Positions 1 through 7,400 of a stretch of 24,000 nt of DNA are shown one piece after another. The position numbers and the translations under genes were made by a program. The DNA lies in the NCBI RefSeq assembly GCF_036550295.1, contig NZ_JAXKGQ010000011.1; one strand, given 5' to 3'. The first letter of the stretch is position 1. Every line of letters starts with the position of its first letter. The notes under the pieces are model-generated. The model was not told the DNA's origin and did no database searches. It saw nothing but the letters and a program-made list of their open reading frames with translations. Origin of the DNA: Terrisporobacter sp. (lineage in GTDB: Bacteria; Bacillota; Clostridia; Peptostreptococcales; Peptostreptococcaceae).

Positions 1-218
1 TAATCCTTAATAACTTTGACACCATCTAGTTTAAATGTCATGGTTTCTTGGTCTAATATCATATTGTCTGAATCTACTTTATTAGATTTTTCTTTTTCTT
101 TCTCCACTTTCACTTTAGTATCGCTATCTTTTGATGTATCACTTGTATCGCTAGAACATCCCACCATTAAACTTCCTACTAATATACTAGCAGTTAATAT
201 ACTTAATACCTTTTTCAT
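1..218 (-). CDS. Putative lipoprotein, N-terminal part (gene runs off the left edge)
   Basis: Absent from the ORF track because there is no stop in the window. Minus-strand ATG at 218..216 is preceded by GGGGTGA (230..224). Translation is MKKVLSILTASILVGSLMVGCSSDTSDTSKDSDTKVKVEKEKEK..., i.e. a signal peptide with a lipobox-like LMVG|C followed by an S/D/T/K-rich linker. The frame stays open to position 1. The listed + ORF 16..222 is its antisense shadow. Confidence 0.6.
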   Translation of the reverse strand, partial: MKKVLSILTASILVGSLMVGCSSDTSDTSKDSDTKVKVEKEKEKSNKVDSDNMILDQETMTFKLDGVKVIKD

Positions 219-340: not shown

Positions 341-496
341 CTAGTTTATATTAATAAGGTTTGTTCTTAATTTTTCTAGTAGAAATACTTCTACTTCTTT
401 GTTGTCCCTAGTTAGGTTGCTTCCATGTATGTAGTGGTAATTTAGTTCTTTTAGGTAGTCTATTACTACGTTTTCAAATAATTATTCTGTAAACAT
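341..496 (-). pseudogene. hsdR: Type I restriction enzyme R subunit (HsdR), N-terminal 52-codon stump with in-frame stop
   Basis: The minus-strand frame from ATG 496..494 (GGGAGAGAG upstream) reads MFTE*LFENVVIDYLKELNYHYIHGSNLTRDNKEVEVFLLEKLRTNLININ*. This matches the usual HsdR N-terminal pattern (E..vi..L..lgY.yi.G..l.rd..evlL...L...l..iN). There is a TAA at codon 5 and the frame ends at 341. The roughly 1000-aa helicase/nuclease body is absent. Confidence 0.55.
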
Positions 497-573
497 ATTT
501 CTCTCTCCCAGTATAGTTTGTATGTTGATTATACTTGGATTTCTATAAGAGTAAAAGTTACTTATTATTTCTT

Positions 574-2025: not shown

Positions 2026-2049
2026 CTACAGATTTAAGCTAGTACTTTA

Positions 2050-3990
2050 CTAGCTTTTTCTTTTACTTATTTCATCATTAAGGCATACTTCATCATTAAC
2101 CTTAATTATAATTAATATAACTAGCCTTAAAAATATCATATAATTAGATTCATGTGTTTTTTCATCTTCATCTCCATTCGGCTGAGTTCCATGACTATAA
2201 TTATTTCTTAAATTTAAACCATTGTTAAAACTAGCTCTATTCAAGTAATAATTAAAATAATCACATTCCGGCTTTGAAAACAAGGAACTCTCAAAGTTAA
2301 TTATATTTTTTAACTCCATTATATCAATAGTTTCTCGCATTTCAGATGGGTACTTCCAATAACTAATAAATTCATTGTTACATAAATCATTTAATATATA
2401 GATTTTCTTATCATCATATATTTCAATATATCCTTCATTATCTATTCTTATATAATGATTATTTATAAGCCAATTAAGGTCATTTTGTAAATATTCACGA
2501 TAATCATTGATATTTACTTTCTCATTTCTTAATAATTCATAAAAATTTTTATATCTATCTTCAACTTTCTCTATATAAGATAACATGCACTGGTCTGAGA
2601 AGAAATAGTAGGTAGCAAGTTTAAACTCATCTCCATATCCATATACATATTTTTTATTTAATAAGCTTGGTATATCTTTAAAAAATAGATGATTAGATGA
2701 CATCTGTAATAATTCTTGGTCTATATCGCCATCATTTACATACATAGAGAATTGTTTTAAAATAGATTCCATTTGAGGTAGAATTGTTGTACACTTTTCT
2801 AAGTATAAAGAATTCTCAGAAGGCATTTTTATATTAAAACCTGATATACCGAACTCATTCACCAAATAATCTTTAAAAAACCATTCTATAACATCTTCTA
2901 GCCTTATATCTATCCTTTTAAGTTCCGCATAATATGCTGTTAATTGTAACCTTGATAATATATCTTTTCTATCAAATCCAGAACCTGTAACATATGCTTT
3001 TTTAGATCTCATTAGTATATTTTTTTCAAGTATTCCCATTTCTTGAATTTTGCTTATTAATGTTATTCTCATTTGCATATCTACAAATCTAAATATATAT
3101 ATAAAATTATTCAACAATGTATTGTAATCTTTATTTTCTTTAAGCCATTTCTGGCTATATATTACTTCACAATTATTCCCGGTAATATTTGTATCTATGA
3201 TTTCCTCTTGAGTTTCTGAAAAACCTACAATAGTTTCCATTGTAAATCCAGATTTAGATTCAAATATTTTATTAGTCTCTTCTTCAAGCTTTCTTTTTGC
3301 ATATAATCTAGTTTTATCAGATATACTTAATTCATTAGTACTATTTATATTTTTAATAATTCTTAAATAGTTAGGATTAGGATTGGGGCTATCAATATAA
3401 TTTCTTATAATTTCTTCTTTATCTGTTAAAGTAAGTTCTTGTGGTAAATAAATATTATCTATATTGTGATTATGATATACTTCATACTTATCTAATATCA
3501 ACTTTGCAGAAAAATTATTAGATAATAATTCTTCTCTAATAGTTTTTCCATAATAATTTACTATTTTTTTATATTTTAATAAATCATAAATACTATTTTC
3601 AGATTTATGTAAGATGTACTTAATCATATTAGGTGAAATTTTTTTGTAAATATTAAAGTCATTAAATAGTTCCCAAAAACTTGATTTGTAACATATTTCT
3701 ACTGACTCAAAAACTTTTTCAATATTTTTATCTGAAATACAACCTAAAAATTTACCTATTATACCCATATATAATTTAGAGGTTTGTCGAGACATAGATA
3801 TTTCTTCAGGAGACCAATAGTTTGGATATATTCCTTTTTCGATATATTTTCTAATATTATTTAATTCTATAATGTCATTAATATCATCATACTTTTTATT
3901 CTTATCAAAGCTTTTGATTACTCTTTCAATACTTTCTACATGATAACCAATTGGTAAATCATTAATTTCATAATATTGCACTCTTTCCAT
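2050..3990 (-). CDS. Large orphan protein (646 aa) with C-terminal Rx4H HEPN-like motif; candidate R-M-associated RNase/abortive-infection effector
   Basis: Uninterrupted 1941-nt ORF with RBS GGGAGTGA 3-6 nt before the ATG. It lies on the same strand and immediately downstream of hsdM-hsdS. The C-terminus reads ...LFSKPECDYFNYYLNRASFNNGLNLRNNYSHG... (R595 at 2206..2208, H600 at 2191..2193), followed by the hydrophobic helix YMIFLRLVILIIIKV. No P-loop (GxxxxGK[ST]) is visible anywhere. Coding status is confident; function is inferred. Confidence 0.85.
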   Translation of the reverse strand: MERVQYYEINDLPIGYHVESIERVIKSFDKNKKYDDINDIIELNNIRKYIEKGIYPNYWSPEEISMSRQTSKLYMGIIGKFLGCISDKNIEKVFESVEICYKSSFWELFNDFNIYKKISPNMIKYILHKSENSIYDLLKYKKIVNYYGKTIREELLSNNFSAKLILDKYEVYHNHNIDNIYLPQELTLTDKEEIIRNYIDSPNPNPNYLRIIKNINSTNELSISDKTRLYAKRKLEEETNKIFESKSGFTMETIVGFSETQEEIIDTNITGNNCEVIYSQKWLKENKDYNTLLNNFIYIFRFVDMQMRITLISKIQEMGILEKNILMRSKKAYVTGSGFDRKDILSRLQLTAYYAELKRIDIRLEDVIEWFFKDYLVNEFGISGFNIKMPSENSLYLEKCTTILPQMESILKQFSMYVNDGDIDQELLQMSSNHLFFKDIPSLLNKKYVYGYGDEFKLATYYFFSDQCMLSYIEKVEDRYKNFYELLRNEKVNINDYREYLQNDLNWLINNHYIRIDNEGYIEIYDDKKIYILNDLCNNEFISYWKYPSEMRETIDIMELKNIINFESSLFSKPECDYFNYYLNRASFNNGLNLRNNYSHGTQPNGDEDEKTHESNYMIFLRLVILIIIKVNDEVCLNDEISKRKS

Positions 3991-4049
3991 AATTCACTCC
4001 CTATAAAATAAACTATATATATTCTTTATATTTTATTTTCAAAATAGTA

Positions 4050-4076
4050 AGTTCTTGACATAAACTGTCAAGAACT
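4050..4076. promoter_or_regulatory. Perfect 11-bp palindrome (AGTTCTTGACA-taaac-TGTCAAGAACT) between hsdS and the 646-aa gene: an operator/promoter or the hsdS terminator
   Basis: The arms 4050..4060 and 4066..4076 are exact reverse complements. Each arm carries a consensus -35 hexamer TTGACA. On the minus strand TTGACA is followed after 16 nt by TACTAT, about 50 nt upstream of ATG 3990. As a terminator it would be weak: an AT-rich stem and an interrupted T-run. Confidence 0.45.
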
Positions 4077-4164: not shown

Positions 4165-5382
4165 TTATTTTATATTTATAGTTCCATTCATAAGTACAGG
4201 TAATAAAATACTTCTTATTTCTTCTAGTTTTTTATTTTCTTGTCGTATTTCATATATATATTCAAAAATATTTTTTGCTAATGAATTGAACTTAACAGTC
4301 ATATTTTTATCAGGTATTGGCAATTTTAATGAAGTTAGATTTTTTTGGTTTATTTTTGGTTGAACAGCTCCTGTTACTAAATGAGTAACATTAGTATTAC
4401 TTAAATATAAATAAACAAATTCATTGCTAAATTCATTTTTCCCTTTCAGTACATGTGCATGATTATTTACCCAAAACTTTCCTCCTACATATTGAAGTAT
4501 CGGAAATCCATCTTTATCTATAACAGTTCCATCTTCACCCATTAATACATGTATTCCTTCAAATATATAGTCATCAACATAATCCATTAATGATGCTGCA
4601 CCATAATAAGGGTATATATTTGCTCTTTTCTCTCTTTCTCGTTTAGATAATGGTATCCTTTTAGAATCTAATATTTCACTAATATCGCTAAAACTTCCTA
4701 CTTCCCATCCCTTAGGAATCATTCCAAGTTCACTTTCAACCATCTCTCCACCACTAGATTTATAAGGCTGACCATCTTCATTAGGAAACTCAAAATCAAC
4801 AAACCATCTTTTATAGATACTCTGAGCCATCTCCTCTAAAGTCTTATTCATCTCATTATTTAACTCTATTTTATCATCTAAAGAAGATAAAATATTAGCT
4901 ATTTTTTCTTGTTCCTCTAATGACGGTAATTTAATAACTAAATCTTTTATTATCTTTGTTGTTAAACTACCTCTAATACTATGTCCATCAGATAACTGAC
5001 GTAGTTCATCATATCTTCCCTTTAAGTTATAATATAGATATTTATTGTGTATTTTAGCATTATTTGTTCTAATAGCTATTAATGATTGATTAATATACGT
5101 ATCAATATTACAAAAAGAAGTTTGACCTCTTGTATAACCTTGTCCAGCCGAAGCTATAACTATATCACCTTTTTTAGCAAGTTTAGTTGACGAGTTATTA
5201 ACACCATCTAAAGTAATTGTTTTTTCAGTTGAATTTATAAAGTTATTTCTTGTCTCTCCAGATGATAACCAAGGAATACTTCCATTCCAATAGTTAGTAT
5301 TTTTTGTTGATGGCGTTCCACCACTAAAAATATTTTCACATATATCTCCTAAACTATACTATTTCCACTCACTACAACTCAT
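4165..5382 (-). pseudogene. hsdS: Type I R-M specificity subunit HsdS, full-length frame (406 codons) interrupted by an in-frame TAG at codon 8
   Basis: ATG at 5382..5380 overlaps the hsdM end (ggatATGagttgTAG), the typical coupled arrangement. The frame reads MSCSEWK*YSLGDICENIFSGGTPSTKNTNYWNGSIPWLSSGE...LPSLEEQEKIANILSSLDDKIELNNEMNKTLEEMAQSIYKRWFVDFEFP...LLPVLMNG. That covers TRD1, the central conserved region, TRD2 and the C-terminal conserved region. The TAG is at 5361..5359. No in-frame ATG/GTG/TTG occurs between it and ATG 4851, which starts the 228-aa track ORF covering only TRD2. Confidence 0.8.
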
Positions 5383-6912: not shown

Positions 6913-7400
6913 CTACAAAATAAGACCTGCTATATGAATATTATCCCAAATAGCAATCAAAACATCACTTATACACTCTTTTTCATAATTTCCAAGATGT
7001 AATTCACCATAATTTTTCCATTATATATACCAGCTTAATTTCTTTTCAGCAGAAACAAATTCTTCTCTACCATAGCCAATATCTACTTCTTTAAGTTTGG
7101 CTGGTGTATTCATAATATAGTCAATTACTGGAGCTATATTTTTGTGTTCCTTAGCTGAAATAGGGAACACTGGCACATTTGGTGCATTTGTTTCTAAGAA
7201 TTTTACATATTTATCTGTTTCTTCATCACTTAATAAATCTATTTTATTTAAAACTATGGCATCTGCTTCTTCTATTTGAGAATTAAGCAAGTATACCATT
7301 TCTTCTGGTAAGTTTATTTGCTCTTTTTGGATCAGTAATAACTATAAAAGGTGCTAAATCAAATTCCCCTTGATATTCTTTGTTTAATTTATGATTTACA
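6913..7400 (-). pseudogene. G3E-family P-loop GTPase (CobW/HypB/UreG-like), 5'-truncated fragment with a frameshift and an in-frame stop
   Basis: Track ORF 7021..7299 contains QIEEADAIVLNKIDLL (NKxD guanine-specificity motif). After its TAA (7023..7021) the same frame stays open for 35 more codons (WKNYGELHLGNYEKECISDVLIAIWDNIHIAGLIL*) down to 6913. Upstream, a different frame reads ...NKEYQGEFDLAPFIVITDPKRANKL, implying a frameshift near 7300..7330. No P-loop-encoding N-terminus is found, so the 5' limit is uncertain. Confidence 0.55.

Follow-up and report, generated by a model that had tools for sequence, protein, structure and literature searches.

What is a 646-residue protein doing between the hsdS and hsdR genes of a type I restriction-modification (R-M) system? 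This question is raised by a 24,000-nucleotide stretch of DNA from Terrisporobacter sp. (contig NZ_JAXKGQ010000011.1; "the window" below), in which hsdM and hsdS are followed on the same strand by an open reading frame (ORF) of 646 codons and then by a remnant of hsdR. An earlier interpretation made from the letters of this DNA (the sequence-only reading) had taken the protein for an orphan and, because it ends with an Rx4H motif and lies where PrrC is found in other type I loci, for a candidate R-M-embedded abortive-infection RNase. The elements of that proposal are all present: the ORF is intact and has a ribosome-binding site, it is read in the same direction as hsdM and hsdS, the gap between the stop of the hsdS ORF (4165) and the gene is exactly 174 nt, R595-x4-H600 is encoded as RNNYSH, and the gene does occupy the hsdS-hsdR slot of a type I R-M locus. 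The proposal proved right in kind, as indicated by the slot, the conservation of the motif and the presence of the family in a catalogue of defence candidates, but its claim of novelty and its analogy with PrrC did not survive. We lean modestly towards a different picture, in which the protein is a candidate for defence by a single, autonomous protein, with a C-terminal E/R-N-x3-H centre that would be an HEPN-type RNase, kept off by the N-terminal body until infection.

The protein is neither an orphan nor the first of an undescribed family. By its end-to-end profile match it is a member of the catalogued PDC-S56 family of PADLOC (model PDLC05039, E 3.3e-248, 823.6 bits, residues 2-643 against profile positions 6-646 of 649), and the sister model PDLC05038 also matched it (E 2.3e-32). 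A word-indexed search with the full-length protein yielded more than 500 homologues, mostly of 640-660 residues. An exhaustive profile search with the C-terminal half, counted as representatives of 50%-identity clusters, yielded 1,243 at E<=1e-3 and 775 at E<=1e-30, with the limit that the search was saturated by the PDC-S56 family itself and that more distant relatives in its tail are hidden. The full-length matches listed in this search were nearly all about 640 residues long, so that the family has a uniform architecture. Relatives were found in 186 species-representative genomes, most of them of Bacillota, with scattered occurrences in Cloacimonadota, Mycoplasmatota, Fusobacteriota, Bacteroidota and one archaeal metagenome-assembled genome; distant copies are carried by plasmids of Enterococcus, Bacillus thuringiensis and Pseudoalteromonas. 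NCBI holds the exact protein as WP_331854328.1 (Terrisporobacter sp.), labelled "hypothetical protein", and an identical 646-residue protein is present on many metagenome contigs.

Payne et al. (2024, bioRxiv 10.1101/2024.01.29.577857) describe the PDC ("phage defence candidate") families as genes that lie inside type I R-M, BREX or DISARM loci and that entered PADLOC after mobile-element and housekeeping functions had been filtered out. Later surveys call most PDCs unvalidated. Such embedding is what we found here, the order being hsdM, hsdS, the 646-codon gene, further cargo and hsdR, and there was no substantive difference between the gene of the window and PDC-S56 as catalogued: the match is full-length, the gene sits within a type I R-M locus and it has no conserved partner. 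Because the PDCs were derived in this way, the embedding argument of the sequence-only reading had already been applied systematically, PDC-S56 being one of its outputs. The accessible parts of the tables of Payne et al. and of the supplement of the HEPN paper cited below contained no mention of S56, PF13910 or the accession.

The most informative part of the protein is its C-terminus. RNNYSH is the only Rx4-6H in a sequence that contains 8 histidines, and an Rx4H arose in 28% of shuffles of the 646-residue protein. The motif of a single sequence is therefore no evidence, and the weight lies in its conservation in the family. This conservation turned out to be near-absolute despite the great diversity of the members. 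R595, N596 and H600 were invariant in 38 diverse homologues. Alignment of 77 full-length sequences (down to 24% identity) left 18 invariant positions, of which six (L570, E575, N584, R595, N596 and H600) fall in the C-terminal block, which also contains Y617. Among 76 representatives at or below 50% identity, E575, N596 and H600 were found in 76/76 and R595 in 75/76, the remaining one having a Lys. The plasmid homologue of Enterococcus hirae, which is only 26% identical, retains the motif as LRNKYEH. H600 is the only invariant His of the family, and it is grouped with the Arg, the Asn and the upstream invariant Glu within 26 residues.

Further indications came from the published description of the HEPN superfamily (Anantharaman et al. 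2013, PMC3710099) and from a structural model. The former gives the motif as Rx4-6H with a polar residue (N, D or H) after the Arg, and R595-N596-x3-H600 has both features. In the AlphaFold2 model of the 646-residue protein (mean predicted local distance difference test (pLDDT) score 89.6, predicted template modelling score 0.83), a helix (573-583) is followed by a short helix that carries the motif (594-599), by a loop and by a 39-residue helix (607-645), so that the conserved residues lie just before the long C-terminal helix. The Asn after the Arg and the predicted location of the motif at the end of a helix, before a loop and a long helix, fit the HEPN description; E575 stands outside the usual HEPN Ex3[KR] context. 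An HEPN-type RNase site appears to be the best reading of the E/R-N-x3-H cluster, and it is from the motif, its conservation and its secondary-structure context that we infer an HEPN-RNase-like action.

The first ~570 residues probably comprise an N-terminal region that is all-alpha, then a small beta unit, and alpha/beta inserts that are faintly winged-helix-like; a separate prediction of the C-terminal half (residues 331-646) had a pLDDT of 90.5. The sequence-only reading had noted no nameable motif in this part. For the protein as a whole, Pfam gave sub-threshold matches only and NCBIfam gave none, hence no significant domain. Two other assignments were considered and rejected. The hydrophobic C-terminal helix was not retained as a transmembrane segment, since R621 and K630 lie inside it and it is modelled as a continuous helix at pLDDT 94-98, nor was E398-K399 retained as a PD-(D/E)xK site, this segment being helical in the model.

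In the mechanism that we favour, the E/R-N-x3-H cluster would be a metal-independent RNase site of the HEPN type. Because there is one motif per chain, homodimerisation would be needed to complete the site. The first ~570 residues would keep the nuclease silent and detect a signal of infection, and activation would lead to cleavage of host and/or phage RNA, so that the infection is aborted. The gene itself would be an exchangeable cargo, placed between hsdS and hsdR by recombination, and most likely works independently of the R-M enzyme.

An HEPN family that shares a signature with the C-terminal block is DUF4209 (PF13910), the C6orf70/ERMARD family, which according to Anantharaman et al. (PMC3710099) "occurs in R-M related operons", bacterial members being described there. 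Its RNxxxHG signature is part of a longer shared one, G-L-(N/D)-L-R-N-x3-H-G, which reads GLNLRNNYSHG in the protein of the window and GLNLRNVLWHG in human ERMARD. The two differ in layout: ERMARD, with about 680 residues, has the motif near residue 195, PDC-S56 at its C-terminus. We scanned two sets of 38 and 76 diverse members, the ten that diverge most and the plasmid homologues for this domain, and DUF4209 was the only Pfam family to recur (in the protein of the window, in 2/38 and in 4/76). Genuine ERMARD proteins were also retrieved for comparison, the human bait being confirmed by the database at 100% identity with PF13910.

Several results must nevertheless be counted against a defence RNase of the HEPN type. 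The DUF4209 match of the protein had a score of 15.4 bits (E 0.02; Pfam threshold 22.3 bits) and covered residues 589-605 only. E values below 0.1 were reached in only 7/125 members scanned, always at the motif and always below threshold, and the best E among 114-124 other members, 0.0026, was still sub-threshold. When a profile of 76 family representatives was aligned by hhalign with one of 16 mammalian ERMARD proteins, a shallow profile that contains no bacterial DUF4209, only 32 columns at the motif were paired, with a probability of 0.7% (E 0.082), the shallowness of the profile making this a weak test. Membership of PDC-S56 in DUF4209 is thus not established by sequence comparison. With the full-length model and with that of the C-terminal half, Foldseek searches of PDB and BFVD returned no match at E<0.25, and none of the credible matches was an HEPN protein; three family profiles run against the sequences of PDB by hidden Markov model search found no solved relative. 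Additional invariant clusters (N294/T291, K447/Y450 and S465/Q467) could form another active or ligand site. No homologue was present in 50,697 phage records or in PHROGs. Lastly, we found no experimental test and no functional or structural characterisation of PDC-S56 in the literature.

Several of these observations could be explained if the protein were not an RNase at all, RNxxxH having a structural or a ligand- or nucleic-acid-binding role and the activity being another one (for instance winged-helix DNA binding or a centre formed by N294, K447, S465 and Q467), in defence or in an unrelated accessory function. That no solved HEPN protein was matched by structure or by profile, that several invariant polar clusters lie outside the C-terminal block and that Rx4H so easily arises by chance are in line with this. 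The best Foldseek matches of the C-terminal half were indeed winged-helix DNA-binding proteins, but at E>=0.8 only, and these were as marginal and unreliable as the alpha-solenoids matched by the full protein. It also counts against this alternative that the sole invariant His is accompanied by an Arg, an Asn and an upstream Glu, that the spacing, the polar residue after the Arg and the helix-loop-helix context fit HEPN and that DUF4209 is the sole recurrent Pfam signal. We therefore hold a non-RNase function to be unlikely, though it deserves more weight than the other alternatives discussed below, and keep to the HEPN-type RNase site.

To see in which company the family is found, we compiled context statistics for 80 homologue loci. 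None of the neighbouring genes was conserved, as would be expected of a single-gene module that is self-contained and has no dedicated antitoxin. The flanking genes were heterogeneous and encoded integrases, resolvases, SLFN-type helicases, ResIII, KAP and STAND NTPases, another HEPN family, HpaII, AbiO, Nhi and other PDCs, the commonest families being integrases, resolvases and recombinases; the copy on the E. hirae plasmid is surrounded by TIR, helicase and recombinase genes. The family is thus patchily distributed in neighbourhoods rich in defence genes and mobile elements, including plasmids. An hsdM gene was found within 10 kb in 8/80 loci, usually on the same strand and with the gene appended after hsdS or hsdR, while the rough expectation for a random gene is inferred to be below 1%; 72/80 loci had no hsdM within that distance. 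Relatives with 63-64% identity, from Paraclostridium sordellii and an allied genome, lie downstream of prfC and directly upstream of McrBC, 58 nt before mcrB-mcrC (L090, 11984-15206; L088, 12312-14645), and one further locus abuts McrBC. Placement beside type I and McrBC restriction genes, on the same strand, is therefore recurrent, and the family associates with restriction systems generally, without dependence on type I R-M. P. sordellii has a shorter McrB gene (428 aa) in its mcr locus, followed by a gene (233 aa) that has no Pfam annotation.

The features of the locus are listed in Table 1. On longer contigs the order is hsdM, hsdS, the 646-codon gene, two ORFs on the opposite strand, the hsdR stump, a gene for a DUF5067 lipoprotein and an intact hsdR, which encodes 1009 residues (PADLOC REase_I, 1.5e-299) and starts about 430 nt past the left edge of the window.

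Table 1. Positions of the PDC-S56 gene, of its signals and of the surrounding R-M genes, numbered along the window.
Feature	Position	Strand	Remarks
PDC-S56 family gene	2050..3990	minus	intact ATG ORF, 646 aa
Conserved C-terminal block, aa 570-634	2089..2283	minus	putative HEPN-like centre E575, N584, R595, N596, H600, Y617 and long terminal helix
R595-N-N-Y-S-H600	2191..2208	minus	from the translation
Ribosome-binding site GGGAG	3997..4001	minus	6 nt before ATG, read from sequence
Inverted repeat AGTTCTTGACA-N5-TGTCAAGAACT, 11-bp, perfect	4050-4076 (feature 4044..4076)	minus	terminator-like, 3' of hsdS
Hairpin with 9-bp stem	2036..2056	.	overlaps stop codon of the 646-codon gene, between convergent genes
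hsdM, type I methyltransferase, 497 aa	5372..6865	minus	Pfam N6_Mtase 1.5e-116 and HsdM_N; PADLOC MTase_I 1.7e-218
hsdS frame, TAG at codon 8 (5359-5361)	4165..5382	minus	only C-terminal half intact (4165-4851, 228 aa), second target-recognition domain
Cargo ORF, 262 aa	649..1437	plus	between the 646-codon gene and the hsdR stump
Cargo ORF, 131 aa	1450..1845	plus	between the 646-codon gene and the hsdR stump
hsdR 5' stump, 51 codons	344..496	minus	stop at codon 5, ends after "LININ"; 80% aa identity to intact HsdR N-terminus
DUF5067 lipoprotein gene, start	1..218	minus	runs off the window

Terminator-like hairpins are present at both ends of the gene. The upstream one overlaps a promoter-like site for the gene, TTGACA-16-TACTAT, whose -35-like TTGACA it contains. 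This site matches at 10/12 positions, a level that is not above chance in such AT-rich DNA; terminator-like sites, on the other hand, were in excess, with 3 in the region scanned where shuffles predict 0.2. The inverted repeat could alternatively be an operator. Because the gene is set apart from hsdS by this hairpin and by the promoter-like site, it is doubtful whether it belongs to the hsdMS operon, and it looks like a transcription unit of its own rather than the third cistron.

The adjacent hsdS is itself damaged. Its codon 8 is TAG here and Glu in the intact 413-aa HsdS of P. sordellii, and the remaining 228-aa ORF matches the C-terminal halves of the PADLOC Specificity_I models. The nonsense codon appears to be fixed: the same 228-aa call was obtained in 4/5 metagenome contigs from separate samples, and a 208-aa one in the fifth (L084), which is error-prone and has split hsdM and hsdR as well. 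The R-M system may consequently be inactive, or may use a half-size HsdS.

The hsdR stump reported by the sequence-only reading is real. The relic (344-541, minus strand) is made up of the 51 codons and about 47 nt upstream; over 200 nt, its nucleotide identity with the beginning of the intact hsdR is 86%. An orthologous R-M locus in Paeniclostridium sordellii (GCA_009678755.1; hsdM and hsdR 87% and 81% identical at the nucleotide level) carries in the same slot, between the intact hsdS and hsdR, a 664-aa SIR2_2 gene (L092, 12794-14788). The stump looks like a recombination relic, the scar of a cassette exchange between hsd loci, and the simplest reading of the slot contents is that cassettes are replaced by recombination between such loci through the conserved ends of hsdS and hsdR. 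The 262-aa and 131-aa ORFs had no match in Pfam, PADLOC or PHROGs. They were constant in the contigs of this organism (hundreds) and were not conserved beside homologues elsewhere; they could be another embedded cargo module.

Two observations were made at the borders of this island. Just upstream of hsdM, a 92-aa ORF (7021-7299, minus strand) matches CobW/HypB-type GTPase domains at their C-terminal end only and is apparently a gene fragment, which suggests that the R-M island was inserted into or beside a disrupted gene. Past the intact hsdR (L081, 18135-21381) are genes for a helix-turn-helix (HTH) protein with an N-terminus like the PADLOC RmrA/HTH models, a NADase_transloc protein and an AAA-ATPase_like plus PDDEXK_9 protein.

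With these data at hand, the analogy with PrrC can be judged. If the protein were such a guard, physical association with the HsdMS/HsdR complex would keep it latent, and inhibition of the type I enzyme by a phage would set it free as an anticodon nuclease. It shares with PrrC and RloC a C-terminal motif of the Rx4H type and, in the window, a position between hsdS and hsdR; about 10% of the homologue loci have adjacent type I genes, mostly on the same strand, and the relatives that abut McrBC make a looser role as "restriction guard" conceivable. However, type I R-M loci are almost the only places where PrrC is embedded according to Payne et al. (10.1101/2024.01.29.577857), whereas 90% of the 80 homologue loci have no hsdM within 10 kb, no neighbour is conserved and close relatives lie beside McrBC. 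The protein also differs from PrrC and RloC in having no N-terminal ABC-ATPase, as the sequence-only reading had correctly stated: neither Pfam nor NCBIfam revealed a P-loop or ABC family, and no PrrC model of PADLOC matched. The hairpin and promoter-like site upstream of the gene, the nonsense codon in the local hsdS and the SIR2 gene in the same slot of the orthologous locus are equally difficult to reconcile with latency through HsdMS, and we consider this explanation very unlikely. Another parallel is offered by HEC-08, a DUF3644 HEPN protein that is described in the same paper as a single-gene defence embedded in Hma systems, the His of its motif being required for defence. Like PDC-S56, it consists of one large protein, carries one Rx4-6H motif and was discovered by embedding, but it belongs to another HEPN family, has an N-terminal HEPN domain followed by zinc-finger-like domains and, unlike PDC-S56, matched solved HEPN structures. 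A role for the mobile elements themselves, be it as a toxin or addiction module that stabilises an island or plasmid or as an anti-defence or competition factor, would account for the frequent integrases, resolvases and recombinases, for the plasmid copies in Enterococcus, B. thuringiensis and Pseudoalteromonas and for the patchy, horizontally transferred distribution. We give it little credence all the same, as there is no conserved antitoxin-like partner, phages and PHROGs yielded no homologue and many copies are chromosomal, beside restriction or defence genes and outside recognisable elements. A bolder variant of the autonomous defence protein is that PDC-S56 is a structurally new single-chain sensor-effector, with a ~570-residue body that has no solved counterpart and an RNxxxH that is either a very divergent HEPN or a convergent RNase, serving as a general back-up or guard when phages neutralise restriction, a role that the recurrent same-strand position beside type I and type IV (McrBC) systems could then reflect; this we judge improbable, if somewhat less so than a PrrC-like guard.

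The finding is real but was previously catalogued, through the same guilt-by-embedding logic as that of the sequence-only reading. The locus provides a clean natural example of the exchange of cassettes between hsdS and hsdR, with PDC-S56 and SIR2 in two orthologous R-M systems and an hsdR stump marking the recombination. The family comprises more than 1,000 sequence clusters, mostly from Bacillota, with gut anaerobes and also plasmids of Enterococcus and Bacillus among their sources, and no solved structure is related to its sensor region. Were PDC-S56 to be confirmed as a defence RNase, a widespread single-gene system would join the validated ones.

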